Shown piece after piece: positions 243 through 15,109 of a stretch of DNA of 64,000 nt. Made by a program: the position numbers and the translations under genes. The stretch is from a virus (Duplodnaviria; Caudoviricetes): the IMG/VR virus record IMGVR_UViG_3300032227_000993. One strand, given 5' to 3'. The first letter of the stretch is position 1; the number at the start of each line of letters is the position of its first letter. Below the pieces are notes generated by a model, which saw nothing but the letters and a program-made list of their open reading frames with translations, ran no database searches and had not been told where the DNA came from.

Positions 243-270
243 AAATAAAAAGTGGGCATATAGCCCACTT
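243..270 (-). terminator. Intrinsic terminator
   Basis: AAGTGGGC-loop-GCCCACTT 8-bp stem (250-270) followed on - strand by TTTATTT. Confidence 0.75.
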
Positions 271-294: not shown

Positions 295-594
295 TTAAAC
301 TACTGTTTTAACAGTTTCAAAATTCATGCCAGTTTCAAGTTGATATTTTAAATAAAATGCTTTGATTTCTGTATCAAATTTATCAGTCTGCTCTTCGTCC
401 ACAATCATGGTATGATCGCCCCATTGTGTGACATGGCCTTGTTCTTTTAATTGATCATTTAGTGCGGTCTGGCGTTCTTTGGCCGCAGCAAATTTAGTTT
501 GATCTTCTGCTGATTGTGTTTTAATCCAATCTTCAATAGGTACAAAAGTTAATCCTTCTGGTGCTGTGTAACGATATTCAATTTGAATTGCCAT
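295..594 (-). CDS. Hypothetical protein
   Basis: 99-aa ORF with AGGAG SD and an upstream TAAATA box. Confidence 0.7.
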   Translation of the reverse strand: MAIQIEYRYTAPEGLTFVPIEDWIKTQSAEDQTKFAAAKERQTALNDQLKEQGHVTQWGDHTMIVDEEQTDKFDTEIKAFYLKYQLETGMNFETVKTVV

Positions 595-619: not shown

Positions 620-1201
620 TTAGCTTATGATCTCAATATTCCTACAGTCAGGATAGTTTACCTGCTGATTTTGCGGCGCGATAGTAGGCAGCAATTTAGA
701 ACCTAATGCACATAGTTCCAAGGTTGGCGAATAGTGAAATCCCAATCCAAATTCTACCTGTTTATCCCACGGACTAATACGCAGATCTCGTCCATCGCTA
801 CGCCACTTAGACATGATATCATACGCTTCCGCATCATCTAACAATATGGCCCCAACTCTGCCCAAGTGCAAGGGTTTTGACCAGCCAAAACTCAAACACT
901 GCATTTGATCTGGTCTATACATACCGGGTTCTAATCTACGAGCACTATCCCAAATGCGTGTGCCGTGGAACTGATATTCACCGACCCATTGTTCTGACGT
1001 TAAAATATAATTAATCCTTAGATGATGCATTATCATAGGCACAGATAGATATGTAAATGCGCTGAATGCTGTTTGTTGTACACGGTCATAGCGCATACAC
1101 AGTTCGATAGCGTGGGTACAGCTATCAGTCAAGATCACATGGGGAGCACCTGTGTAATCTGCCAAGTCTTGTTCAAATTTAAATAATGCGTCAAAGCTCA
1201 T
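620..1201 (-). CDS. Short DegT/DnrJ/EryC1/StrS-like PLP sugar aminotransferase
   Basis: TDSCTHAIEL, WDSA and CLSFGWSKPLHLGRVGAIL resemble the DegT-family SF..xK PLP-lysine region; only 193 aa. Confidence 0.75.
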   Translation of the reverse strand: MSFDALFKFEQDLADYTGAPHVILTDSCTHAIELCMRYDRVQQTAFSAFTYLSVPMIMHHLRINYILTSEQWVGEYQFHGTRIWDSARRLEPGMYRPDQMQCLSFGWSKPLHLGRVGAILLDDAEAYDIMSKWRSDGRDLRISPWDKQVEFGLGFHYSPTLELCALGSKLLPTIAPQNQQVNYPDCRNIEIIS

Positions 1202-2151
1202 TTAGTGTACCATTTCCAAGCATGAGTAATCATATCTTCTAAATTGTATTTAGGCGCCCATCCAGTGACTTGAACAAACTTACCGGGGTCAGCTGTCAGC
1301 ATGGCTGGGTCACCTTCGCGTTTTCCGCCTACACTTAGGTTAACACGTTGGCCTGTGACTTTTTCAGCCAACCTGACAATTTCTAAATTACTGGCACCGG
1401 TCTTGGTTCCTAAATTGTAAACGCCGCTGGTCACAGCAACATCGATAGCACGAGCGTGAGCATCTGCTATGTCATCAACATGAATGTAGTCTCGAACACA
1501 AGTGCCATCTTCTGTTTCGTAGTCGTTGCCGTAGATTAAAAAGTCTGAGTTATCACGGATACTTTCTAGCACACGAGCAATGATATGTGTAGCGTTGGGT
1601 TCTTGTCCGTGTCGCACTTGTGGATCAGCACTACAGGCGTTGAAGAAACGAAACGCCACATACTCTATGCCGTAGGCTCGATGATACGCTGCCAATGCCC
1701 ACTCAATAAACAGTTTACTTTGTCCGTACGGACTGATAGGTTCTGCTGGGTCAATTTCTTGGCAAGGAACCATGATAGGGTTGCCATAGGTAGAAGCTGA
1801 CGAACTAAAAATAATTTTAGGTTTCCAAAAAAACTTATCTTTGATTTTATCAAGCAAGCGAACAGTTTTTAATACATTGTTATTGTAGTACAACTGTGGA
1901 TCAGTCACAGATGGACCAACCAGCGAAGTTCCAGCGCAATGAATAATGGCATCAGGCTTGCCCTCCATCATTAGCTTGTCAAATGCTTCGCTGTCAAAAT
2001 CACATTGTTCAAACCAATCAAACTTGCCTTCCAAGTGAGCAGGCAACGGACGTGTATCTACTCCAATGACCTGACGCCCTTGATCTTTTAGTTTGACAGC
2101 AACTTGGCCGCCAATGTAACCACTAATACCTGTGACAATAATGATACTCAT
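1198..2151 (-). CDS. galE: UDP-glucose 4-epimerase
   Basis: TGISGYIG Rossmann motif, FSSSA, YGQSK catalytic motif, RFFNA, DGTCVRDYIHVDDIA. Confidence 0.92.
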   Translation of the reverse strand: MSIIIVTGISGYIGGQVAVKLKDQGRQVIGVDTRPLPAHLEGKFDWFEQCDFDSEAFDKLMMEGKPDAIIHCAGTSLVGPSVTDPQLYYNNNVLKTVRLLDKIKDKFFWKPKIIFSSSASTYGNPIMVPCQEIDPAEPISPYGQSKLFIEWALAAYHRAYGIEYVAFRFFNACSADPQVRHGQEPNATHIIARVLESIRDNSDFLIYGNDYETEDGTCVRDYIHVDDIADAHARAIDVAVTSGVYNLGTKTGASNLEIVRLAEKVTGQRVNLSVGGKREGDPAMLTADPGKFVQVTGWAPKYNLEDMITHAWKWYTK

Positions 2152-3329
2152 TAATATTTGGCCTTTACTACATGATCACGATAACGATTACCAGCGCGAT
2201 TCCATTGTTCGCCACGACCCTCCAAGATATCTATTACACGATCAATGGTGCTGTTGTTCCAGTCACTGATTAGGCCCATGTTCTTATGTGGTTCTGCTAA
2301 AAGATTGTTTAACTTGGCGCTGGCGTCTTCTAATGACCAAGGAATGTAAAGACGTTCAGGGTCATTAGCAAAAGTTTCAGGGAAACTACGATAAGCAGGA
2401 TATAACACGTTACAACCAAGAGTATCGGCTTCAGATACTGTGTTAGATACCCAATCCTGTAAAGCACAATTAAAAAGCACACGGCTATCGTTGACCAAAG
2501 AATAATATTCATTTTTATTTAAGTTTTCGTGGATTTGCAATGCGCCTTCGTCACTCATCTTACGAGCACGTTTTACATATTCTGGATTGTTACTACGCAA
2601 TGGTCCACCTGAGAAAATAGCAAAGCTAACATCCTTATAGGCCTTTTGGTATTCTTCAGCCAGGTCCATAAAGAATCCAGGCTGTTTCTCTTGATCAAAC
2701 CTTGCGGCAAATGCCACACGCTTTTGTCTTTGATCAAATGGCCTGATGTTTGTAATACCACCAATACGTTCCAACACTTCCTCTTTGCCAAATGCCAGTC
2801 CACTGATATTGTAGATTGGAGCAGTCCAACCAGCGATACGCATATGAGCTACCATTTCTTCGTTGGTAGCAAGCACACCAGTTACAAACTCATTAACCAT
2901 CTTTTCATACGTTGCCATCCAACCAGCCATACCCCATACATGAACAAAATCGTCAGGATCGATGGCCTGAGCAAGACAACGTACAAAAATACGGGGACGC
3001 AAATTAGCAGGGACTTGATCAAGAATGTAAGGTAAGCTCTCGATACCGGGCTGAAACATATCTTCAAAGTAGATAACATCTTCATCAGTGACTTCTCCAT
3101 TGCGCATCATTTGTACCAGGTTCATCATTTGGCTCATACCGAAGTAACTGCGACCATGTGCGTCTAGCACTTGCCCTACTGAAATAGTTTGTGTGTTATC
3201 GATAGTAGAACCCGGAACATAAACTACTTCTAATCCACGACGATCAAACACACGTCGATTCCATTCAGTGAGTTGTAGAGTGTAGCGAGCCTCATATGAT
3301 TCAAGGCCCATGTAAAATAGTTTACGCAT
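2151..3329 (-). CDS. GT-B (GT4-like) glycosyltransferase
   Basis: FAARFDQEKQP and LQDWVSNTVSEA (E-x7-E-like region); start moved to MRKLF at 3329, which overlaps the upstream stop. Confidence 0.75.
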   Translation of the reverse strand: MRKLFYMGLESYEARYTLQLTEWNRRVFDRRGLEVVYVPGSTIDNTQTISVGQVLDAHGRSYFGMSQMMNLVQMMRNGEVTDEDVIYFEDMFQPGIESLPYILDQVPANLRPRIFVRCLAQAIDPDDFVHVWGMAGWMATYEKMVNEFVTGVLATNEEMVAHMRIAGWTAPIYNISGLAFGKEEVLERIGGITNIRPFDQRQKRVAFAARFDQEKQPGFFMDLAEEYQKAYKDVSFAIFSGGPLRSNNPEYVKRARKMSDEGALQIHENLNKNEYYSLVNDSRVLFNCALQDWVSNTVSEADTLGCNVLYPAYRSFPETFANDPERLYIPWSLEDASAKLNNLLAEPHKNMGLISDWNNSTIDRVIDILEGRGEQWNRAGNRYRDHVVKAKY

Positions 3330-3552
3330 GGCGACGATATCCGGAGAATCTGCGGGCATCTTCTTCCCACATATTCTTTACGTTTTTGCCTTGTACAAAC
3401 TTGTTGTACTGTTGCCAAGCGTATGCTTTAAAGTTGTAAAGATCATTCTCGTTGTAGCGATATCCGTGTTCTACACAAAATTCTAAGAACTTTGCAAGGT
3501 CATCATGAACAGCTAACGCACGAGGGCTTGGTTTGTAATGGACTTTACCCAT
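3322..3552 (-). CDS. Hypothetical protein
   Basis: Start MGKVHY at 3552 with upstream AAGGAA; stop overlaps the glycosyltransferase start. Confidence 0.65.
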   Translation of the reverse strand: MGKVHYKPSPRALAVHDDLAKFLEFCVEHGYRYNENDLYNFKAYAWQQYNKFVQGKNVKNMWEEDARRFSGYRRHA

Positions 3553-3562
3553 TTTATTTCCT

Positions 3563-4033
3563 TTAATATTTAATACTAAGATTAGGGCGAGAAAGTTCAT
3601 ACTTAATGAGGCAACCGTTCTCACCATCTTCGGCCACATCAATCCACACAGCTCGCTCAGGATATCTGGCGGCTATCTGATCATACAAGTCATCTGCTAT
3701 CATTTCGCAGGACTTAAAATCTAATTCTAAAACGGAATTCGAATCACTTCTGTGACTGGTATAGAGATTCTCGAGCCAGCGTTTGAACTGGATGAATTCG
3801 ATATCTCTGTCATTGTGGAAGACATCGATCCACACCCGGAAGTGGAAAATATGGCGATGAGGATTAGCAAGGAACGATACATCATATTCATCTCCTGTGG
3901 CCAAGTTTGGGTCTGTAGCGGCCGCAGGGTATTTATGTATACCTTCTCGGCGGAATGTAACCCAAATCTTACGTTCTGCGTTTTCTTTAATACGTTGTGC
4001 TTGTTCTACCAATGCTTGTTTTCGTTGTTCCAT
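3563..4033 (-). CDS. QueD-like T-fold protein (possible DpdL type)
   Basis: FLANPHRHIFHF (LxxxHRHxF) metal-binding motif and SCEMIA; TAATG coupling at 4033. Confidence 0.7.
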   Translation of the reverse strand: MEQRKQALVEQAQRIKENAERKIWVTFRREGIHKYPAAATDPNLATGDEYDVSFLANPHRHIFHFRVWIDVFHNDRDIEFIQFKRWLENLYTSHRSDSNSVLELDFKSCEMIADDLYDQIAARYPERAVWIDVAEDGENGCLIKYELSRPNLSIKY

Positions 4034-4326
4034 TATTGTTTCCAAAGTTCCATTGCTACGATTTTACCAATTGTTTCTGCTACATCTTCACCGTCGGCAA
4101 TAATATGTGTAGAGTTAGCATGGCAATCATTTACGTGATCATATTTACGAAGTTGTACAATAGTACCGCCCTGTGCTGGCATAACATTGAATGTTAGTCC
4201 TTCAATATCAACCGTTGGTCTTTTTATTGATGCAACAGAAATAGTGTCAAAATCATTACGTTCTACACTTACATAACCGGCACCAAGCCAATTAAAAATG
4301 TTAAGGCGCCACTGCCTTGGTATCAT
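4033..4326 (-). CDS. Hypothetical protein
   Basis: 97-aa ORF overlapping both neighbours. Confidence 0.65.
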   Translation of the reverse strand: MIPRQWRLNIFNWLGAGYVSVERNDFDTISVASIKRPTVDIEGLTFNVMPAQGGTIVQLRKYDHVNDCHANSTHIIADGEDVAETIGKIVAMELWKQ

Positions 4327-4841
4327 TTGATTACCTCGTCTTTGGTGTATTTAGACCAGTCGGTGAATACCTCACGCTTTTGTAAATCATGTAGGCTGTG
4401 GCACCATACGCCCGGGTTTGTTGCGGCAAAATCTCTATCATCAATTTTAAGAGTGGCATTGTATCCAAATTGTCGAATGTAGGGAAGTTTAACACTAATC
4501 ATTGGAATAAAGTTATCAAACTCTACCAATGAAGATTCAAGCAGGCCTTCTGCTTGTGCTACATCTAAATCAAGTGTGCAGTAGTTTGGAATTTTTTCTA
4601 AACAGGCCTTGACCATCCACTCCCACTCACACCAACCATCACCGTCGTTAATGTCCAATGCTGGAAAACTTTGATTGGCACCAAAATAAATGTGTTCACA
4701 GTTGTTGTTGGCAAATTCTTGCAAAATAATTTGTGGATCTTGTACACCTACAACAAACAATGTACGCAGGCCAAATGCCGCTGTGTGTTCAACTTCAGTA
4801 CCAATAAAAAACGATACGTCAGTGTGTCCATCTCTATTCAT
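4323..4841 (-). CDS. Hypothetical protein in the dpdA cluster
   Basis: 172-aa ORF with GTEVEHT and HIYFGANQSF; ATGA-coupled on both sides. Confidence 0.75.
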   Translation of the reverse strand: MNRDGHTDVSFFIGTEVEHTAAFGLRTLFVVGVQDPQIILQEFANNNCEHIYFGANQSFPALDINDGDGWCEWEWMVKACLEKIPNYCTLDLDVAQAEGLLESSLVEFDNFIPMISVKLPYIRQFGYNATLKIDDRDFAATNPGVWCHSLHDLQKREVFTDWSKYTKDEVIK

Positions 4842-5038
4842 TTTTTTTCCGTTTTGTAAACAGGTTCGTTGTATTCTTGTATAAGTGTAACAAGTTCTGT
4901 CTTAACTCGCAACCTTTGCTTCTTCAAATCAGTTATTTCGACATCGTCAAATACTCCAGTACTTTCCAAACCGTCAATCTTTTTATCTAAACGGTGATGT
5001 TCTTCTTCTAAATGTTTAATACGATTTTTTACAGACAT
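4838..5038 (-). CDS. DUF465/YdcH-like small coiled-coil protein
   Basis: RIKHLEEEHHRLDKKI...LKKQRLRVK pattern. Confidence 0.65.
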   Translation of the reverse strand: MSVKNRIKHLEEEHHRLDKKIDGLESTGVFDDVEITDLKKQRLRVKTELVTLIQEYNEPVYKTEKK

Positions 5039-5040
5039 TT

Positions 5041-6591
5041 TTACGCCTCCAGTTGGTCAAGTTTATTTGGGTCAAGTTCTACATCGTCGCCGTCTACACC
5101 ATCTTCGACTTCTTCTACATCAAACAAGGTATTGAACATGGCACGAGCATTAACAGTCTTTTTACCTTTAAAGCCACGTGTACCGATGATGTCCATCCAA
5201 TAACGATTGTAGTGTTCAATAATAGCTTCTGCTTCCGCGCGATCCGGTGTGGCAAAGATCGCATTTACAATATCTTTAAACTTGGCATGATCGCCGTTTT
5301 GATTCCACATCATAGCAGGCCAAGTACCAGCGTCGTATTCGCGATTGGCACGTTGTACTGCTTCCAAGTGCATCCACACATTATGGCCCATAAGCAACGC
5401 ATAACTAAACGAATCCCAACTGGTCTTGCCTTCCTTACCGATCTTATTTAGGTCACCTGGCTTGTAGATACAGATATCTTTCATCTTTAGGTGTCGACTA
5501 ATCGGCGACTCATCAAAGTGTCCAATTAGGCCATCTGCGATAACAGCCGGACCAAACTGTCGCGGGTCAGTGGAGTATTTTTTATCATCCACAATAGGAC
5601 TCATACGATAGCACCACTTTTCGTTGTGTGGTAAATCAATGTGATGATACACCTGTCCGTTAGCTGTGGCCAAGAATGGACTAGCACAATCAAAGCTGAT
5701 GGTAAAAGCAGGGTTAACATACTTACGAACAGCACGTTGGACGTCTGTTAATAACACAGCCCACTCTAACTTACTTGTGCCCAAGAAGTGCATCCAATCG
5801 TGTACACCCTCCTGTAACAAGTTATCATAACGTAGTGCCACTAAGCGTTTAAGAACCAAGTGTATGTCGCACATATTCTGACCACCCATACTCCAGCCAT
5901 TAAAGTGTGTATCCGGATACTTGACAGGATCACAATAGTCCTTCATCAAGTCATACCACCGATCGGCTTCTGCGTGATTACTGCCTTGTAACACGTTTAA
6001 GAACTTGGCGCCACCATTCTTGACACCCTTGCGATTGGCCATGAAGTAATCATTGTTGTACTTGGTAGCGTCAACGGCTTCTTGGTATGTGGTGATAGCA
6101 CAAGCTGCGCTGGCCTTTTTATCATGTATGACCCAGGTTGGAATATCAAGAATCATGCCGTAGTCGGCCACTCCGTCCATCCACTTGAGCACAGCATCAC
6201 GTTTCTTCTGCGCCTTGGGACAACCGCTACCAGCTTTCCAGTCACCTTCCCACAAGCCCTTGGCAATCTGAAATCCACCCGAGTCGCCCAAGATAAAAGA
6301 ACCAGGATCACGATTGCGAACCATGTCTTCAGACCAGTCCTGCTTGTTAAGGTCCAAGTTGGCATGACCGCCCGAGTACAGGCTCCACCGGTAAGGAAAC
6401 AGGCCCTTCTGAGGATCAAGCCAATTCATCATTTCCATGTCCTGTATGCCTGCAGGCAAGCGAGCAGGATCTACATAAGGACCATTCACAGGATCACGTT
6501 GTTTACCAATAAAGGTAGCATAGAATCCGCTAATAGCTGGAAGGAATACAGCGTAGTCTTTTTGTTTTGCTGTTAAGTTATCTTGAGTCAT
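5041..6591 (-). CDS. dpdA: TGT-like transglycosylase, probable DNA 7-deazaguanine inserter (DpdA family)
   Basis: ILGDSGGFQ guanine-binding motif, HFLG, and ISFDCASP matching the TGT nucleophile motif (MFDCVxP); QueD-like gene nearby. Confidence 0.8.
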   Translation of the reverse strand: MTQDNLTAKQKDYAVFLPAISGFYATFIGKQRDPVNGPYVDPARLPAGIQDMEMMNWLDPQKGLFPYRWSLYSGGHANLDLNKQDWSEDMVRNRDPGSFILGDSGGFQIAKGLWEGDWKAGSGCPKAQKKRDAVLKWMDGVADYGMILDIPTWVIHDKKASAACAITTYQEAVDATKYNNDYFMANRKGVKNGGAKFLNVLQGSNHAEADRWYDLMKDYCDPVKYPDTHFNGWSMGGQNMCDIHLVLKRLVALRYDNLLQEGVHDWMHFLGTSKLEWAVLLTDVQRAVRKYVNPAFTISFDCASPFLATANGQVYHHIDLPHNEKWCYRMSPIVDDKKYSTDPRQFGPAVIADGLIGHFDESPISRHLKMKDICIYKPGDLNKIGKEGKTSWDSFSYALLMGHNVWMHLEAVQRANREYDAGTWPAMMWNQNGDHAKFKDIVNAIFATPDRAEAEAIIEHYNRYWMDIIGTRGFKGKKTVNARAMFNTLFDVEEVEDGVDGDDVELDPNKLDQLEA

Positions 6592-7664
6592 ACTAAATTG
6601 TTTATAATCGGATGGAAGTTTGTATTATTGTACATGGTTTTACATTTTTTTACAAGGGCAATACATTCTAAATGATCAGTATGAGCTGGATCTAAAATAT
6701 TGTTATCGTCAAAGCTACCATTTTCTATTGTAAATTTATCTGACGTGGACGGCAGTTTTCCAAACCTACTCCAAGTAGCCCAGTCATCGAGCGGAACTAC
6801 TTCGCCCGCAAATCCGTATTGTTCACATAGGTTAATGAAGTTTGGTAAGTCTCGCCAGTTGTTTCTTTGTAACACAAAACTTAACACCACGCGAGTCCCA
6901 CTGGTATTTTCTTTGAGCCAATTTAAATTGTCTATTAGAACACTGAACTTGCCTGGGCGACGCACTACTTCGTAAACTTCTGCAGTACCGGCATCAATAC
7001 TAATCTTGTAGCTGGTCACATTTGATAACACTGGAGCGTCTGCCAATACTTTTTTAATTAAAAGACCGTTAGTAAAAATAGTAAATGTCTGTGTAGATTT
7101 AGGCTGCCACTTTTTTAGCAAAGGACGCATAATATGACTGGCTAAACAATCTCCGTTACCGCTGGTGGTAATGTGGATAGGCTTATCGTATTTTTCTAAC
7201 CACTCAAGTATGCGCTCAACACTTTTGATACGCTCGTCGTAAATGGGGCCTTCGCTGTACAAGTATTGTTCTCTACGGCAACTGGGGCAAGCTAAATTAC
7301 AACTATCATCAATGTTAATACTAAGCTGAGTACGATCATAACTGATGTTCTTGTTAATAACATCACAATGCTTGACAGCACAGTATGTAAACTTTTTATC
7401 AGTTACATCTTGTTGTAACGCAAGAGCACGTTCATTATTAAAAACATCTTCGATACTATCAAAGTCAGTTACCTTACCTACAGGAATAGGAAGCCAAGCA
7501 TCGCAGATACAAAGATTACAATCACTATCTTTATCAACAGTAATGTACTGATATGGTACTGTACAACTGCCTTTGATAGGGCCGTCGTAGTCTTTACCAC
7601 GCGGACGATTATTAAATGTCCACCAGTCTCGGACGCTGACTTCAAACGGTCCTATTTTTGACAT
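6588..7664 (-). CDS. Radical SAM protein
   Basis: CNLACPSC (CxxxCxxC), SGNGD, ISIDAGT, extra N-terminal Cys cluster. Confidence 0.85.
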   Translation of the reverse strand: MSKIGPFEVSVRDWWTFNNRPRGKDYDGPIKGSCTVPYQYITVDKDSDCNLCICDAWLPIPVGKVTDFDSIEDVFNNERALALQQDVTDKKFTYCAVKHCDVINKNISYDRTQLSINIDDSCNLACPSCRREQYLYSEGPIYDERIKSVERILEWLEKYDKPIHITTSGNGDCLASHIMRPLLKKWQPKSTQTFTIFTNGLLIKKVLADAPVLSNVTSYKISIDAGTAEVYEVVRRPGKFSVLIDNLNWLKENTSGTRVVLSFVLQRNNWRDLPNFINLCEQYGFAGEVVPLDDWATWSRFGKLPSTSDKFTIENGSFDDNNILDPAHTDHLECIALVKKCKTMYNNTNFHPIINNLV

Positions 7665-8386
7665 TATTTGCTTTGGGCTGGAAGAATAAAGTTGTAAGTA
7701 GCAAGTCCTGAATCAACAGTAATCATTGCCGCGCCATCATCACTAATCTTCATTACTTTGTCGCCATACAAATCAAGAATACTGATTACAGTCTTGATTG
7801 GCCAGGACCAAGCACGTTTTAATTGACCTTGTACGCTGGGTTGGAAAACAAAGTTACCCGAGTGTGTGCTATGATCGCCAAACACAAACTTCAAGTCACC
7901 GTTTTCAGTTTTGGCCTGGAACGTAGTTTCTTCTATGTTGGCCTGTGCCTGCATCTTTAAACGCTGAATAGCCGCCGCTGTGGGTTCAAATTCAATGCCC
8001 CAGTTGGCACCTTTAAACTTGACAGTCTTGAGTTTTTCGTTGACAATCTCACTTGCCATAAAGCGATAGTTGTTTTTAAAGTCACCTGCTTTGTTTTCAA
8101 AGTTAATGCCATCTGGAGCACCAGTATCCTTACGTGTGATATTTAACTTGGCATCTTCTTTGTATTCTTGTAAGTTTAACAAAACCTTGAGCTTGCTTAA
8201 GTTTGGCATACCAAACGTACCAACAAAGTCAGCAACAGGGTTAGCAAACGTACCCTCGACTACAACACTACGATCCTCGGCTAATCCAGAGATTGTAGTT
8301 TCTTTATCAGAGCCAGTGATTTTTACCAAATCAATAACACCCAAATCGAAAGTATGAGACACTAAGTCTAAGAGATGATCACGCAT
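7664..8386 (-). CDS. Sliding clamp (gp45-like processivity factor)
   Basis: 240 aa, close to the polymerase gene, GTFGMPNLSKL and NYRFM segments typical of phage clamps; clamp loader present in the window. Confidence 0.6.
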   Translation of the reverse strand: MRDHLLDLVSHTFDLGVIDLVKITGSDKETTISGLAEDRSVVVEGTFANPVADFVGTFGMPNLSKLKVLLNLQEYKEDAKLNITRKDTGAPDGINFENKAGDFKNNYRFMASEIVNEKLKTVKFKGANWGIEFEPTAAAIQRLKMQAQANIEETTFQAKTENGDLKFVFGDHSTHSGNFVFQPSVQGQLKRAWSWPIKTVISILDLYGDKVMKISDDGAAMITVDSGLATYNFILPAQSK

Positions 8387-8413
8387 TTTATTTCCTTTAT
8401 GTAAGTATTTGTT

Positions 8414-8442
8414 AGTATAACAGAGTTATTTAGAATTTACAA
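8414..8442 (-). promoter_or_regulatory. Sigma70-type promoter with nested late box
   Basis: TTGTAA-N17-TATACT with TAAATA at 8427-8432 in the spacer. Confidence 0.65.
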
Positions 8443-9348
8443 CTATTTCGGCAATATTTTTGCCAACGACTGCCCACCTTTGATTGAAGTAAGTTTGCCA
8501 GGTTTTCTAAGTTCTAACCAAGTGGTGGGTCCTTCATCATTCCAGGAGAATTCAATTTGGTATCCAATACTGACAGCAAGGTCACGCAATAGATATCCTG
8601 GAGTGTAACAACAAAAATAATGCTCAACCAAAATAACAGCCGACGCTCGGTCACAATCATTAAAGGTTAATATCAGCACACCACCTGGTTTAAGTTTAGC
8701 ATAAATTTCAGTAAGATATTGCTTAATAATTTCAAACGGTCTAAAATTAAAATAATTGTAAGCAAACACCAATCCAAATTGATTATCGGGCAGGGCTTGG
8801 AGAATATTTTCACTTTCCTCCTTGACCACATATTTTCTTAATCTACGTTGATACACATCTGAAAATTTATCAGTGATTGTTTCTAAAAATTCATGATTGA
8901 TATCAGCCACATACAAAGGATCAGCCCCAACCATATCGTCGATAAAAGTTTCTTTACCAGGTCGGATAATTAATCCAGCATAATGCCAACTGACATATCT
9001 TAACAAGCGAGCTTTAAACATACTGATATCATTAAATTTGGTCGATATCCGCATATTAAAAATAGTTTCAGCAGTAGAGTTGAGTTCACCATTGTACAAA
9101 TCATAACTTTTGGCAAACCATGGTTTTTCGGCCACTACAATTTGATTTTTAAGATCTTGTTTTACTTGATCAAGCGTGGTATTAAACGTATCAAATAGAC
9201 TATTGATATTTGTTAATTGATCGCCGAGAGTGTTGCTGTTGGTTAGATGTGTGATTTTACTCAGCTCTACATTAACTGTGGTTTGAGCCAGCTCAGTAGA
9301 TAATTTATCTAATTCGTTTTTGTAATTAATAAGATCGCTTAGTTTCAT
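8443..9348 (-). CDS. Class I SAM-dependent methyltransferase-like protein with N-terminal coiled coil
   Basis: LIIRPG, LYVADI, FGLVFAYNYFNF and KLKPGGVLILT. Confidence 0.65.
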   Translation of the reverse strand: MKLSDLINYKNELDKLSTELAQTTVNVELSKITHLTNSNTLGDQLTNINSLFDTFNTTLDQVKQDLKNQIVVAEKPWFAKSYDLYNGELNSTAETIFNMRISTKFNDISMFKARLLRYVSWHYAGLIIRPGKETFIDDMVGADPLYVADINHEFLETITDKFSDVYQRRLRKYVVKEESENILQALPDNQFGLVFAYNYFNFRPFEIIKQYLTEIYAKLKPGGVLILTFNDCDRASAVILVEHYFCCYTPGYLLRDLAVSIGYQIEFSWNDEGPTTWLELRKPGKLTSIKGGQSLAKILPK

Positions 9349-12009
9349 TTAGAACTCAAATAGATTTGTAAATGTATTTTCTGTATTGGTAGCACTTGCT
9401 AAGTCCCAATCTAACACACCAAGCAAGTTATCAATCTTTTGATCAACTACAGTAGCTTCCATCAAGCCGTCATCAAAAGGTAGATCTTTAAACCAATCAG
9501 GCAGTCGTGTTTCATCTGTAGGATAACCAATACTTGTCCAACCCAATGGATTGGGCTTTAATTTACATACAATAGTTTTCATTCCGTCTACAATTTGTGC
9601 GGAATAGTTATCGCTGTTCATTCTACGTAGGTTATTCCAATTTAGTGCCGCACGGACGTGCCCTGGCATATTGGCCTTGCCTTCTTTTTCTTCCTTGGCA
9701 CCGTACGCTGTCAAGTTATTAACTCTCTTGGGACTGCCTTTCTCCCAAGCCGGTCGCTCCATGAACTCATACTTAAACTCGCGGATGCGTTCTACGATAG
9801 TATCGCGCGGTGTTCCTGTTAGCACTTTTTCAAGAATCTCATACAAGAACTCTTGGATAACCTTGGGAGTATCACTACGCTTCAAGTCCAAGCCCATGGC
9901 TTTGATCTTGCCTGGTTTACCGTCAACGTCAAGTCGTTTGTTTTCTAAATCATAAATCAATACAGCATAACGTTTTTTGGTAATAAACAAACTGTTAGAC
10001 GCAACAAGTTCGCGACCAGCTTTGATAAGTGAGCCAGCATCGCGTGGACAATGAAACGCCTGTTCCATAAACGCTGGAAATGATTCGTTGACTTGATCAG
10101 CAATATTGTCATAAAGTTGAATACACATTTCTTTACTCCAGGTCATATTGCCAGCGGCTACTTCTTTCTTAATCATCGGCCAGGCTGTAAAATAACACGA
10201 GTCAGTGTCGCCATACACAATAGCTTCGCCTACATGATCTTTTTCGCCGGTGATACATTCATTAATGTATCCGGCCATGTGACGAGCAATAGCACGTCCA
10301 CACAATGTGGTTGATTGACCAATACGCTTGTCAAAGAAGCGACAATGTGGATTCAAAATGGCGCCGTACAATGAGTTCAAGTTGATCTTTTTTACTAACT
10401 GACGCTTGTCCCAGAACGCAATCTCTTTGGGATCTTTTGCATCTTTCTTCTTGGCCTGCATCTCTTGACGTTCAGCGTACCACCTCTCTAGCAATCCTGG
10501 AACAACACCCTTCTTCTCATATGTAACAATAGTGCCATTGGCAGTCAACATCCAAGGTTGATTACTGTTAAAAACAATATTCCATACTTCTTTGGCAGAG
10601 TGAACACTTACATCGCCGTCTTGCCAATCAATGGTAATTTCTGTTCCTGCTTGTTGCTCCATAACTGCGGTGTATTCAAATGTGCCAAAAACATTTTCCC
10701 ACGCTGCCGCAAAGGATTTCTTTTTATTTTCAACTAGATCTTTGATGTATCTGTCGGTGATAATAGGTCGAAGTTGTCCTACCACGGTTTCCATCCCCAT
10801 GTTCAAGGCGCGAATAGCCGAAGGATACAGTGAGTTAATATCAACTGCGCCTACCCATTCGTGTACGCCTTTTTTAGGATAAGCAACATACGCACCCGCG
10901 GCCGCTGTATCTTCATCCTCGCCAATGCGCTTGCGATTAGGAACTACAAATCCGCGTTCGTGTGCTTCGTTGATAATGGCCTGTTCAGTAACTGCTACTG
11001 CGCCCATGACTGTTGGAAGCAATACTGTGTTGTCGTGCGCAATTTCGTTGGCCAAGTCAATAAACTGTAGCTTCTTATCCAGCTTGTCTAACAACAAGGT
11101 ATCTTGTCTGTTGTATTCAATAAATTTCTTAAAGTTTTGATTGTACAGTTGATCCAATGTACCTTCGTATGCTGTTTTACTGTCATTTAATTCGTATTCT
11201 CCAATGGCATCCAAAGAATAACTATGACGTTCTTCATACGTGTATTTGCGATACAGCTGCATGTAATCCATATGAACCCGGCCGATTAAATCATATGTTT
11301 GTGATTCAGCACCAAAGCGTTCAAAGGTACGATCCTTAGGAAATTGTCCCCACAGACAAAACTTACGAGTGTCGTCTTTGCTCAACACTCGTGTGATACG
11401 ATTTACTGTGTAGGGTATATCATAACCTTCTGAGTTCCAACCTGACAGCACGTCAGCATCGTCAATCAACTCTAAGAATGTCACAAGCATATCAGCTTCT
11501 TTCTCAAACACAAGAGTGTTTTCAAAATCTTTAGCAATATCTTGTGCTGTTTCAAGGCTCATGTGTTTGGGTGGAATCACTAATGTTACTAATTGTTCCA
11601 TCCATTGTAGGTAAACAGAAATAGCAGTGATGCTGTTAAACGGATCTGATGTTGGAGAGAATCCTTTTTCTTGGTGGAAGTCCACCTCGATGTCAAAAAA
11701 CGCTACATTTAGTTTTGGGGAATCTTTGCCTTTGTAGTTATTTTCTAAACAGCGAAAGATTGGATTGATATCAGACTCATACAAATTTTTATTCTTTTGT
11801 ATTGCCTGTTCTTTGCGAAACTCTTTGCCACTACGAGTTGAAAAGCGGCTTACTGGTGTGCCATAGATACTGGTAAACTTGCCACGCGGGTCATCATGAT
11901 AGAATATGTATTCTGCTGGATATTCTTTGTAAACCCGCTTGCCATCTACACGTTCTACAACGTGTATGCGATCATGCTCGCGGTCATATAAACTGTCAAC
12001 GTAACTCAT
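9349..12009 (-). CDS. polB: Family B DNA polymerase (gp43-like)
   Basis: Exonuclease motifs FDIE, WNSEGYDIPY, YNRQD; polymerase motifs DINSLYPS, KINLNSLYG, YGDTDS. Confidence 0.97.
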   Translation of the reverse strand: MSYVDSLYDREHDRIHVVERVDGKRVYKEYPAEYIFYHDDPRGKFTSIYGTPVSRFSTRSGKEFRKEQAIQKNKNLYESDINPIFRCLENNYKGKDSPKLNVAFFDIEVDFHQEKGFSPTSDPFNSITAISVYLQWMEQLVTLVIPPKHMSLETAQDIAKDFENTLVFEKEADMLVTFLELIDDADVLSGWNSEGYDIPYTVNRITRVLSKDDTRKFCLWGQFPKDRTFERFGAESQTYDLIGRVHMDYMQLYRKYTYEERHSYSLDAIGEYELNDSKTAYEGTLDQLYNQNFKKFIEYNRQDTLLLDKLDKKLQFIDLANEIAHDNTVLLPTVMGAVAVTEQAIINEAHERGFVVPNRKRIGEDEDTAAAGAYVAYPKKGVHEWVGAVDINSLYPSAIRALNMGMETVVGQLRPIITDRYIKDLVENKKKSFAAAWENVFGTFEYTAVMEQQAGTEITIDWQDGDVSVHSAKEVWNIVFNSNQPWMLTANGTIVTYEKKGVVPGLLERWYAERQEMQAKKKDAKDPKEIAFWDKRQLVKKINLNSLYGAILNPHCRFFDKRIGQSTTLCGRAIARHMAGYINECITGEKDHVGEAIVYGDTDSCYFTAWPMIKKEVAAGNMTWSKEMCIQLYDNIADQVNESFPAFMEQAFHCPRDAGSLIKAGRELVASNSLFITKKRYAVLIYDLENKRLDVDGKPGKIKAMGLDLKRSDTPKVIQEFLYEILEKVLTGTPRDTIVERIREFKYEFMERPAWEKGSPKRVNNLTAYGAKEEKEGKANMPGHVRAALNWNNLRRMNSDNYSAQIVDGMKTIVCKLKPNPLGWTSIGYPTDETRLPDWFKDLPFDDGLMEATVVDQKIDNLLGVLDWDLASATNTENTFTNLFEF

Positions 12010-12375: not shown

Positions 12376-12404
12376 ATTATACGACATAAATATCCTTATG
12401 TCAA
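12376..12404 (-). promoter_or_regulatory. Perfect-consensus sigma70 promoter overlapping a divergent late box
   Basis: TTGACA-N17-TATAAT on - strand; + strand TAAATA at 12387-12392 lies in its spacer. Confidence 0.8.
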
Positions 12405-13216: not shown

Positions 13217-13312
13217 GCTCACTTAAGCAATGCCTTCCGGGCACGACTCCTTAGCATCACAAGGCAGCAGCCGCCTACACCAAACGTAACTAAGTTACGG
13301 TCCTAAGGTGAT
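13217..13312 (-). ncRNA. Candidate structured RNA, unassigned
   Basis: GC-richer intergenic segment with stems CCTTAG/CTAAGG, CGTAAC/GTTACG, AGGCGG/CTGCCT, GTGCC/GGCAT and a free 3' tail. Confidence 0.55.
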
Positions 13313-14454
13313 TCTTTTAATAAATGACTGATAGCCGGCACCATGGCATGGACGTCAAGATCACGCTCGGCAGCTAATAATGTTGTTTGCTTTTTTAATT
13401 CATCGAGACTACTGTACGCTTGATCATTCAAACGATCTACAGCTATTTTAAAGGGATTACCCAATGAGGCGTGCCAGTTGCCCGGTACAGTATCAGCATA
13501 TTCTAAAAACTGTTCTGTAAGTTTGAGTTTTTCATCTGCCGGCAATAACGATACTGTTTGCCAAGCTGGCCAGGATATCCAATTGAAACTCATTTTCCAT
13601 GTTGGAAATTTATCTATCATGTATTGAATAATATTTTTTAAATCATAGATATTAAAGATATTCATTACTGTATGTGTTTCTAAACTGATGTTTGGATGAT
13701 TGCCCCATAAATCTTGATATTGTTGCATTACAGATTCTACCTGCTCAAATTTACTTGGCCAACGATACCAATCATTTACAGAGGCAATGCCGTCCAAACT
13801 AACTTTTAATCTAACCAATTTACATTGTTCGATCAAGCCGCTTAATTCAGCATTTGGTAATTTTGTTCCGTTGGTGGCAATGTACATAGATTCAATGTTA
13901 TCAAAGTTAATTTTTTTCATCAAATTGATAAAGCGTTTTTGTTCCATAAACGGTTCGCCACCAATAATTTTAAGTTCAGTTATTTGTGAGAGATCTTCTA
14001 ACTCTTCGATTGGATGACCATGTTCAACAAAACTACCACTAAGATTACGTCCGTGTTTAAAATCTTCAGTGGCCCAGGTAGACGAAAAAGATCTAGTGCA
14101 ACTTACGCAGGCAAGATTACACAGGTTACTAAAACTCATTTCTAAAAATTTTAACGGAGCAGCTTCAACTTTGGTGTAAGTAGCTGGATATTGATCGCGG
14201 CGTATTGTGCGTAAACTTTTAGCGCCACTTGCTTCTTCGGTGTAACAATTAGAGCACTCTTTAACAGATTCTCCGGCTAACATTTTTTGCCTGATGTTTT
14301 GCCAGCCTGGTTGGTTGCGCATATCTGGACCCATTGGGTTCTCAACAGGCCATAGGTGATATTGTTTAGGTTTGAACTTACAACAAGGAATTGAAGTACC
14401 GTCAGGGCGTACTGCTAAACTATCCCATGCCCACTGGCACATTGAGTCATTCAT
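13303..14454 (-). CDS. Radical SAM protein with N-terminal SPASM/twitch-like Cys cluster
   Basis: CNLACVSC, GGEPF, VSLDG; N-terminal CQWAW...PDGTSIPCC and CSNCY; start moved to MNDSM. Confidence 0.88.
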   Translation of the reverse strand: MNDSMCQWAWDSLAVRPDGTSIPCCKFKPKQYHLWPVENPMGPDMRNQPGWQNIRQKMLAGESVKECSNCYTEEASGAKSLRTIRRDQYPATYTKVEAAPLKFLEMSFSNLCNLACVSCTRSFSSTWATEDFKHGRNLSGSFVEHGHPIEELEDLSQITELKIIGGEPFMEQKRFINLMKKINFDNIESMYIATNGTKLPNAELSGLIEQCKLVRLKVSLDGIASVNDWYRWPSKFEQVESVMQQYQDLWGNHPNISLETHTVMNIFNIYDLKNIIQYMIDKFPTWKMSFNWISWPAWQTVSLLPADEKLKLTEQFLEYADTVPGNWHASLGNPFKIAVDRLNDQAYSSLDELKKQTTLLAAERDLDVHAMVPAISHLLKESP

Positions 14455-14467
14455 GCTGTTCCTAATG

Positions 14468-15109
14468 TTAATTTTTTCTGAAACTAGGTGCCGACGTGTA
14501 TCCAGTTCTATCAATTTCTTCGGCTTGACTAAGTAAACCAACTTTAGTATCAATCATAGCTTTTGCCCACATTATTTGATTGCGGACAAAAATATCAATC
14601 ACATCGTCTGGATCTTTTCTACTTTTAATATCCATGCCATCATCAACAGCACTTACAAACGCATCAGGTGGAACTGTAAAACCCAAGTAGCTGGCAAATC
14701 CAAATGCCTTGGCGGCTGTAGCTTGCCAGCCATCATCGGACCCAGATACGATAATGCCAAATGTTTTACCATAGTGCGGATTAAAATTATTTTTAATCCC
14801 CCAATCATCTATGTAACCCATGCGTTCCATAAGTGCTTGTATGTAACTGCTGTATGTACCCCACCAAATAGGTGTAGCAAAAATAATACCGTCGTATTTT
14901 AGTATTTCTTTTAGAACCCAAGTCATGTCATCAGCAACGCCGTCTCTGCGTACTCGATCTACACCAGGCTCAAAATTTAAATCTCTTAAAACAATTTCAT
15001 TAACTTCGACACCGTGACGATTGAACTCAGCAATGACTCGATCAACTACCTTTTGAGTATTTGATTCTTCTGGCGGTGTTAGAGATCCATTAAGAACAAG
15101 AAATTTCAT
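14468..15109 (-). CDS. Flavodoxin-like NAD(P)H-dependent FMN reductase (WrbA-like)
   Basis: LNGSL...SNT and DGIIFATPIWWG. Confidence 0.85.
   Translation of the reverse strand: MKFLVLNGSLTPPEESNTQKVVDRVIAEFNRHGVEVNEIVLRDLNFEPGVDRVRRDGVADDMTWVLKEILKYDGIIFATPIWWGTYSSYIQALMERMGYIDDWGIKNNFNPHYGKTFGIIVSGSDDGWQATAAKAFGFASYLGFTVPPDAFVSAVDDGMDIKSRKDPDDVIDIFVRNQIMWAKAMIDTKVGLLSQAEEIDRTGYTSAPSFRKN

Follow-up and report, generated by a model that had tools for sequence, protein, structure and literature searches.

The DNA examined here is a stretch of 64,000 nucleotides from a virus of the Caudoviricetes (IMG/VR record IMGVR_UViG_3300032227_000993; in the following the window, meaning this whole stretch), and the analysis concerns a run of genes at positions 620-6591 in which a gene resembling those of tRNA-guanine transglycosylases (TGT) and of the phage enzyme DpdA is found together with the gene for DpdL and a glycosyltransferase (GT) gene. 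Sequencing data sets sharing small parts of the stretch carry the labels metagenome, freshwater and lake water. The run comprises ten minus-strand open reading frames (ORFs) overlapping or abutting one another, with the following features (aa, amino acids):

5041-6591, minus strand: putative DpdA-like base-exchange enzyme with predicted TGT fold, 516 aa (fold model and motifs)
4838-5038, minus strand: small DUF465 protein, accessory (Pfam PF04325, E 1.4e-13)
4323-4841, minus strand: conserved protein u172, candidate module component (conservation in related loci)
4033-4326, minus strand: 97-aa protein without family match, variable among relatives
3563-4033, minus strand: DpdL, QueD paralogue (LxxxHRHxF signature; phrog_17812, E 1.7e-33)
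3322-3552, minus strand: small ORF of 76 aa between dpdL and the GT gene (position kept in relatives)
2151-3359, minus strand: predicted GT4-like glycosyltransferase of GT-B type, P0004, long form (sub-threshold Pfam matches and motifs)
1198-2151, minus strand: UDP-glucose 4-epimerase GalE (TIGR01179, 299.3 bits against a cut-off of 262.3)
620-1201, minus strand: half-size DegT/DnrJ/EryC1-like pyridoxal phosphate (PLP) protein, 193 aa (Pfam PF01041, 41 bits)

The gene order of this run is shared by 80 viral contigs with TGT-like proteins 61-93% identical to that of the window (hereafter the 80 related loci, in which the presence of genes was scored by tblastn), and it is also seen in contigs of at least 336 kb. 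The tight coupling described in an earlier note on this DNA, which had been made without database searches, is thus confirmed, as the genes lie where that note had placed them, overlap or abut, and keep their order in the 80 contigs. Judged by sequence conservation, the ORFs between 620 and 6591 are real, conserved genes of an uncultured jumbo phage. The same run starts further upstream with genes for a family B DNA polymerase (9349-12009), a methyltransferase-like protein, a 240-aa protein and a twitch-domain radical S-adenosylmethionine (SAM) enzyme; the order of polymerase, methyltransferase-like, 240-aa and TGT-like genes is kept in most of the 80 related loci, and Pseudomonas phage PA5oct retains the order of polymerase, 240-aa and TGT-like genes.

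The 516-aa protein had been called TGT-like on account of the motifs DSGGFQ and SFDC, which are read directly at residues 103-108 and 299-302, respectively. It has no sequence match in Pfam (E 0.01), PHROG, NCBIfam or the PDB, and a PDB sequence search with a profile of 51 homologues found no TGT either, so that the motifs and, as outlined below, the TGT/DpdA fold of this assignment stand, while membership of a known sequence family does not; in the lack of a match to any family hidden Markov model (HMM), the TGT identity is taken from fold and motifs. The DpdA-type proteins of the phages ACP17, X1, BCSR5 and BUCT-ZZ01 likewise fail the Pfam TGT hmmscan (PF01702). The family is large, with at least 7,955 proteins in 961 clusters at 50% identity, and its members are found on contigs of up to ~370 kb; among the best 120 of several thousand homologues, identity to the window protein is 75-90%. 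PA5oct and Phosso hold a homologue with 30-36% identity, and no Pfam-recognisable TGT was found elsewhere in these two genomes.

Modelling by AlphaFold with a 51-sequence alignment of diverse family members gave a predicted local distance difference test (pLDDT) value of 89.4, compared to 35 for the single sequence. The best 50 Foldseek matches of this model in the PDB are all tRNA-guanine transglycosylases, and in a Foldseek-independent comparison by VIA-align against 48,161 chains the top five were the archaeosine TGT ArcTGT (Z 18.3), QTRT2 (17.2), bacterial TGT (16.2), the DNA preQ0 insertase DpdA (7ui4; 15.9) and Cap10 (15.2), with generic TIM barrels scoring Z <=11.7. Matches among viral models include a protein of Vibrio phage nt-1, the TGT of phage Motura and a phiST protein. 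Residues D103, S104, G106 and D301 are invariant in all 51 homologues and D149 is found in 50 of them, and the motifs DSGG[FY]Q, (L/F)D..P and [FY]D align with those of ACP17 and X1 DpdA; their aspartates are taken here to match Asp102, Asp156 and Asp280 of the Zymomonas mobilis TGT. In TGT and DpdA enzymes, the zinc site is formed by a CxCxxC...H motif in the C-terminal subdomain. No conserved cysteine cluster corresponding to this motif occurs among the 51 homologues, where C374 (32/51) and H403 (44/51) are the only frequent zinc-type residues after residue 300.

By hhalign, the family profile matches the ACP17 protein encoded beside dpdL and an X1 protein annotated as queuine tRNA-ribosyltransferase at a probability of 96% each, the BUCT-ZZ01 counterpart at 93%, and DpdA3 of phiST at 64%. 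Placement of the protein among DpdA subfamilies as opposed to tRNA-acting enzymes, a check proposed in the earlier note, thus leads into the TGT/DpdA superfamily and next to the ACP17 and X1 DpdA proteins, but DpdA and tRNA TGTs are not told apart by fold scores. The genomic setting of the family is always that of deazaguanine synthesis beside replication genes, which points to DNA and not tRNA as the substrate. Taken together, fold, aspartates and gene context suggest that the 516-aa protein is a divergent DpdA-like base-exchange enzyme acting on DNA.

Two further observations concern this family. Residues 472-516 (window 5041-5180) are acidic, have a pLDDT below 50, and resemble the acidic partner-binding tails of replication proteins. 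A 31%-identical family member (P0246) is encoded beside PTPS, FolE and QueC genes together with integrases and a TRAP transporter, and its contig probably represents a preQ0-type prophage or bacterial island.

The gene at 3563-4033 had been described as QueD-like. Its product (P0002), however, is not QueD, as the signature LxxxHRHxF replaces the canonical QueD motif CxxxHGH, where four true QueD sequences in the same alignment read C..HGY, and it aligns with the DpdL proteins of phiST, ACP17, PA5oct, X1 and BUCT-ZZ01. By its sequence signature it is therefore DpdL, with a predicted role as decarboxylase of 7-carboxy-7-deazaguanine (CDG). The signature was defined by Hutinet et al., who proposed that DpdL converts CDG to 7-deazaguanine (PMC10516641). 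In the DNA of phiST, dG is fully replaced by 2'-deoxy-7-deazaguanosine (dDG), but expression of dpdL and dpdA from phiST or ACP17 in Escherichia coli yielded no dDG (PMC10516641); in the case of ACP17 this failure is consistent with missing partner genes.

The genes for the preceding steps are found in the same gene run just past the window start, where folE, PTPS, a purine-type phosphoribosyltransferase (PRTase) gene and queE follow on the same contig and in its relatives. In line with the earlier note, which had placed folE and queE outside the window, a tblastn search for folE, queD, queE and PRTase found none inside it, and folE starts just beyond its first position. No QueC above cut-off was found in five cultured genomes carrying the module. 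The PRTase best resembles, weakly, the HGPRT/XPRT salvage enzymes, and HIT-family genes lie near the folE/PRTase/queE run. The PRTase gene adjoins queE in the jumbo clade (L096:16907-18500) and in Synechococcus phage BUCT-ZZ01 (L005:3233-4554), and again in locus L099; its product could recycle guanine freed by base exchange or build a deazapurine nucleotide. In Xanthomonas phage X1, a 177-aa PP-loop protein of the PAPS-reductase type is encoded between folE and the GT gene (L091:7344-7877) and could, in the manner of QueC-like enzymes, adenylate the carboxylate of CDG. The 383-aa ORF gp176 of Vibrio phage Bakedbeans (L102:6212-7363) shows its homology to DpdL in the C-terminal third, a layout suggestive of a fusion protein containing DpdL.

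The putative glycosyltransferase P0004 reaches E 1e-3 (18.6-19.4 bits) with Pfam Glycos_transf_1 and Glyco_trans_1_2, which falls short of the cut-offs, whereas the 68% identical GT of BUCT-ZZ01 passes both PF13692 and PF00534, and PF00534 is matched by six of ten GT family members (E <=5). The motifs RxxxEKQ and (E/D)x7E are conserved, with R220, E224, K225, Q226, Q301 and E310 identical in all aligned family members, while (E/D)x7E starts with D in a long and with E in a short form of the enzyme. The GT-B assignment made in the earlier note is supported by these motifs, but P0004 itself stays under the Pfam thresholds. Searching the PDB with the GT profile returned WlaC alone (E 0.098), and hhalign comparisons of the profile to single GT4 sequences gave low probabilities with the expected motifs aligned. 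The language-model neighbours of P0004 are viral GT1/GT4 clusters, and its features also put it near clusters named tRNA-queuosine mannosyltransferase; a link to QTMAN finds no support in Pfam, as no match to QTMAN_N (PF12038) was found in any of the ten GT family members (E <=5).

The long form of ~390-400 aa is found in the window clade and in BUCT-ZZ01, the short form of 342-366 aa in PA5oct (EST35_0317), ACP17 (ASD50404) and divergent jumbo loci, and tblastn places the GTs of Phosso, X1 and BCSR5 in the same family. Identity between the two forms is only 20-24%, yet the adjacency to DpdL is kept. Co-occurrence of this GT family with dpdA across phages, another of the checks proposed beforehand, is strong, and an independent distribution of the two was not seen: DpdL and a GT of the P0004 family are present in 39 of 39 informative metagenomic loci, i.e., those extending 5 kb or more downstream from the TGT-like gene, at a median distance of 702 nt from DpdL start to GT start. 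Amongst seven cultured lineages, the GT gene adjoins that for DpdL in PA5oct, Phosso, ACP17 and BUCT-ZZ01 and lies at most 3.5 kb away in X1, BUDD and BCSR5; in ACP17 and PA5oct it resides inside a tight dpdA-GT-dpdL run. Even in locus L099, whose TGT-like protein is 30% identical, the order of TGT-like, DpdL, cupin, short GT and FolE genes is kept. By these comparisons, the predicted GT4-like enzyme is a genuine conserved member of the DpdL-type deazaguanine module of this kind. In BUCT-ZZ01, dpdA and dpdL are flanked by two GTs, as a second GT-B-like gene (L005:6010-7353; 447 aa, Pfam Glyco_trans_1_4, E 3e-5) adjoins the DpdA-like gene on its upstream side.

The sugar-nucleotide genes behave differently. 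GalE, which the earlier note had named as such, is identified by TIGR01179 above the curated cut-off and is found in 23 of 24 loci with the long-form GT versus 3 of 15 with the short form. No full-length GalE was found in the examined flanks of PA5oct, ACP17, X1 and BUCT-ZZ01, and no DegT-like gene in those of PA5oct and ACP17. For GalE and the DegT-like gene, co-occurrence with dpdA hence does not hold; as judged from their distribution, both are lineage-specific accessories, GalE being a bona fide equivalog. The aminotransferase assignment of the DegT-like protein is supported by the invariant residues K109 and D85, which align with the PLP lysine (SxxxxK) and the pyridine-nitrogen aspartate (DxA) of a WecE-like enzyme, but at 193 aa, compared to ~360-400 aa, the protein has half the family length, its PF01041 match covers residues 8-42 only, and relative to the full-length WecE-like enzyme it has large internal and C-terminal deletions. 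In Flavobacterium phage immuto_2-6A and Synechococcus phage S-SCSM2R, homologues of it belong to sugar clusters with several GT genes, and the 9-kb flanks examined there contain no deazaguanine genes. The DNA of immuto_2-6A contains only fdPreQ1 besides canonical dA, dC and dT (PMC10516641), and since it is thus free of sugar, such genes alone do not imply DNA glycosylation.

Other lineages carry other genes of this kind. Further along in the window clade there are genes for a C-methyltransferase, a cupin, a short-chain dehydrogenase/reductase (SDR), a UDP-sugar dehydrogenase and an epimerase, and in L099 (9001-16900) a GmhA-, HddA-, GmhB- and HddC-like set lies between folE and the PRTase gene; with best matches below equivalog cut-offs, this set would represent a GDP-heptose-like pathway where the window has GalE. 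A diversifying glycosylation system would be expected to show just this pattern, in which the GT is constant and the donor pathways change. PA5oct encodes, near dpdL, a 172-aa protein (EST35_0320; L001:11416-11934) resembling the N-terminal Rossmann part of GalE (27% over 124 aa) which may be a truncated epimerase-like partner.

From these data, the following scheme is proposed, in which the catalytic steps are derived from fold, motifs, gene presence and co-occurrence. FolE, QueD and QueE, encoded just outside the window, would convert GTP to CDG by established pathway chemistry, and DpdL, in the function predicted for it in the literature, would decarboxylate CDG to 7-deazaguanine. The 516-aa TGT-fold protein would then swap G in DNA for the deazapurine, and the GT4-like enzyme would glycosylate the deazaguanine with an NDP-sugar as donor, most probably once the base has been inserted into DNA. 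GalE, and perhaps the mini-DegT protein, would tailor the donor sugar in the window lineage, a task that other cassettes would take over in other lineages, and the purine phosphoribosyltransferase beside queE might, speculatively, recycle the released guanine.

The chances appear evenly balanced that the stretch is the centre of a conserved module which replaces guanine in phage DNA by a 7-deazaguanine derivative to which the GT adds a sugar. As to the glycosylated deazaguanine base itself, which the earlier note had suggested, the GT is indeed fixed in the module while GalE and the DegT-like gene are lineage-specific; the base is a plausible and well-motivated hypothesis rather than a demonstrated product, with prospects at or a little below even. 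Somewhat more tentatively, and with the balance slightly against it, a sugar-bearing 7-deazaguanine might be a widespread hypermodification of phage DNA, made by the trio of large DpdA-like, DpdL and GT4-like proteins with a sugar that varies between lineages. The sugar, be it a hexose obtained through GalE, a heptose or C-methyl sugars, could be linked to C7 as a C-glycoside or to N2 as an N-glycoside, and the base would then be found in PA5oct, ACP17, X1, BCSR5, Phosso, BUCT-ZZ01 and abundant freshwater jumbo phages. A deazaguanine system in PA5oct was listed earlier by Iyer et al. (PMC7824862), and it was recently shown that PA5oct virion DNA resists cleavage at several G-containing restriction sites and is attacked by nucleases sensing modified G, the modified base being left unassigned (10.1101/2025.03.31.646159). 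The GT is not discussed in these two papers or in PMC10516641, and among the open-access papers searched none was found that describes a glycosylated deazaguanine from phage DNA.

A number of points weigh against a sugar on the base. The weakest step of the mechanism is the sugar acceptor: plain 7-deazaguanine has neither a hydroxyl nor a side-chain amine and offers only C7-H, N2 and ring atoms, so that the sugar would have to be C- or N2-linked, or the base be a different one. The DpdA-like protein has neither the conserved zinc motif nor HMM membership, and P0004 itself is under the Pfam cut-offs with its GT-B fold being a prediction. Furthermore, about half of the DpdL-bearing cultured lineages have no GT (phiST and relatives, RHph_I1_18, Ahp1, Bakedbeans, D479, MA9V-3 and Roos), and the plain dDG of phiST, which has DpdL but lacks the GT (PMC10516641), shows that dDG as such does not require this enzyme. 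In addition, the DegT-like homologues of immuto_2-6A belong to sugar clusters of a phage whose only modified base is the sugar-free fdPreQ1, and in PhiXhv-12 a distant relative of the GT lies among GlmS-like and deacetylase-like genes with no deazaguanine genes.

The cases of phiST, immuto_2-6A and PhiXhv-12, together with the observation that sugar clusters without a link to DNA are frequent in large phages (the DegT-like homologues of S-SCSM2R being part of another such cluster), also speak for an alternative in which the module makes a non-glycosylated deazaguanine (dDG or its 7-carboxy counterpart dCDG) while the GT and sugar genes would serve to glycosylate a protein or the host envelope, or the GT would act in base supply, in a biosynthetic or structural capacity that puts no sugar into DNA. 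This alternative is unlikely, although it deserves to be taken seriously, as it does not readily account for the persistence of the GT beside DpdL and the DpdA-like gene at 20-24% GT identity, for its position within the tight dpdA-GT-dpdL run of ACP17 and PA5oct, or for the insertion of sugar-nucleotide cassettes between folE and PRTase/queE. The PRTase itself allows for a different, pre-replicative route, in which it would couple CDG or 7-deazaguanine to phosphoribosyl pyrophosphate (PRPP), the reduced and phosphorylated nucleotide being incorporated by the phage polymerase, and the TGT-fold protein would serve otherwise, for instance in repairing or editing residual G. PRPP coupling of a deazapurine is known from tubercidin and toyocamycin biosynthesis, the PRTase gene stands beside queE in the jumbo clade, BUCT-ZZ01 and L099, and the module is located within the polymerase operon with HIT-family genes nearby. 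However, the weak resemblance of the PRTase is to HGPRT/XPRT salvage enzymes, which could merely recycle released guanine, the TGT-fold protein is highly conserved and retains a full set of catalytic aspartates, and all known deazaguanine phages carry DpdA and modify their DNA after replication (PMC10516641), which makes this route improbable.

Finally, the TGT-fold protein might act on tRNA and the GT glycosylate the inserted base there, as in mannosyl- and galactosyl-queuosine. In favour of such a role are the fold scores, which do not part tRNA TGTs from DpdA, and the language-model features, which put the GT near tRNA-queuosine mannosyltransferase clusters. Nevertheless it is highly improbable, given that none of the ten GT family members has the QTMAN_N domain in Pfam, that the cyclopentenediol of queuosine cannot be made with no queC in five cultured relatives, that the genes lie within a replication module, and that the modified G of PA5oct is in virion DNA (10.1101/2025.03.31.646159).

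Amongst the known systems, the one of phiST, which makes dDG with FolE, QueD, QueE, DpdL and DpdA3 (PMC10516641), has no QueC, as is the case for the five cultured genomes with the module, and shares with the window the LxxxHRHxF-type DpdL, a predicted TGT-fold insertion enzyme and the location beside replication genes. Unlike the window, phiST has a short DpdA3 of 259 aa (hhalign 64%), neither a GT4-like gene nor sugar-nucleotide genes, and it has MazG-like and kinase-like neighbours. Acidovorax phage ACP17 and PA5oct resemble the window in having a large DpdA-like protein, a GT4-like protein, DpdL, QueE, FolE and a u172 homologue; they differ from it by the short form of their GT (342-353 aa, 22% identical). 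The glucosyltransferases of T-even phages are of GT-B type and transfer sugar from a UDP-sugar to a pre-modified DNA base, with the sugar varying by lineage. Here, too, a predicted phage GT-B-type enzyme would add sugar to a pre-modified DNA base, but the acceptor in T-even phages is the hydroxymethyl group of a pyrimidine, 5-hydroxymethylcytosine, made before replication, in contrast to a deazapurine without evident hydroxyl.

Outside of phage DNA, a precedent for the proposed N2 sugar is provided by HuiG of huimycin biosynthesis, for which a role in attaching a sugar at N2 to a base of the 7-deazaguanine type was put forward (PMC7439116; 10.64898/2026.04.15.718813). As in the window, a glycosyltransferase is part of a FolE/QueD/QueE cluster, and the huimycin family carries PF13439 glycosyltransferases, but the product is a free secondary metabolite of an actinomycete which needs QueC and an O-methyltransferase, and the system has no nucleic-acid insertion enzyme. 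QTMAN and QTGAL, in turn, are GT-B enzymes that decorate a 7-deazaguanine derivative already present in nucleic acid, and their language-model features are similar to those of the window GT, whereas their acceptor is the queuosine diol in tRNA and QTMAN_N is absent from the ten GT family members.

Of the ways in which phages hide their DNA from restriction and CRISPR, the use of 7-deazaguanine bases and that of sugar-decorated pyrimidines are the best known, and no base combining deazaguanine with a sugar was found in the literature searched. The module is very common, with thousands of homologues, and is also present in laboratory phages, so that three questions on which it bears are directly testable, i.e., the identity of the modified G in PA5oct, the failure of ACP17 dpdA and dpdL in E. 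coli, and the true reaction of DpdL. If true, a purine glycoside in DNA would be relevant to modification-dependent nucleases, to sequencing artefacts and to the search for new DNA-modifying glycosyltransferases.

Around the genes listed above, the remaining features of the run are as follows:

250-270, minus strand: terminator-like hairpin, 8-bp stem followed by a T-rich tail (consensus match only)
295-594, minus strand: 99-aa protein, last gene ahead of the hairpin (ORF only)
6588-7664, minus strand: twitch-domain radical SAM enzyme, accessory (Pfam Radical_SAM and SPASM; NCBIfam N_Twi_rSAM-like)
7664-12009, minus strand: upstream genes for the 240-aa protein, the methyltransferase-like protein and the family B DNA polymerase (Pfam)
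12376-12404, minus strand: sigma-70-like promoter match TTGACA-17-TATAAT, 12/12, upstream of the polymerase gene

The promoter match and the hairpin may bracket a single transcription unit of ~12 kb; sigma-70-like sites overall are not more frequent than in shuffled sequences, and the match at 12376-12404 is one to the consensus only.

Of the smaller genes, u172 is found in nearly all of the 80 related loci. Its homologue lies directly upstream of dpdA in ACP17 and elsewhere in the genome in PA5oct, and for candidate remote relatives encoded ahead of the GT in X1 and BCSR5, hhalign probabilities are only 1-11%. Neither a Pfam nor a PDB match was found for u172, and its profile returned nothing from the PDB; a hint from language-model features that it might be a small GT-A enzyme was discarded, as too few features were shared to be trusted. 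The DUF465 gene, which the earlier note had recognised correctly, is present in only 12 of the 80 related loci. The 97-aa protein (4033-4326) occurs in a minority of related loci and has no family match, and the same lack of a family match applies to the small ORF (3322-3552), whose position is filled by ORFs of 72-89 aa in the relatives checked. No Pfam or PHROG match was found for the 99-aa protein (295-594).

The radical SAM gene at 6588-7664, present in 5 of the 80 related loci, was considered as a candidate QueE and rejected as a twitch-domain enzyme; a paralogous gene lies at 13303-14553, and both have an N-terminal twitch/SPASM-like domain. The 240-aa protein (7664-8386) is kept in PA5oct, where it was named 'structural protein' after mass spectrometry, and for its homologues in Phosso the annotations are sliding clamp beta for one copy and virion structural protein for another. 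The Methyltransf_11-like gene (8443-9348) is found between the polymerase and TGT-like genes in most related loci; the huimycin cluster likewise pairs a SAM methyltransferase with a glycosyltransferase, which may be a coincidence.

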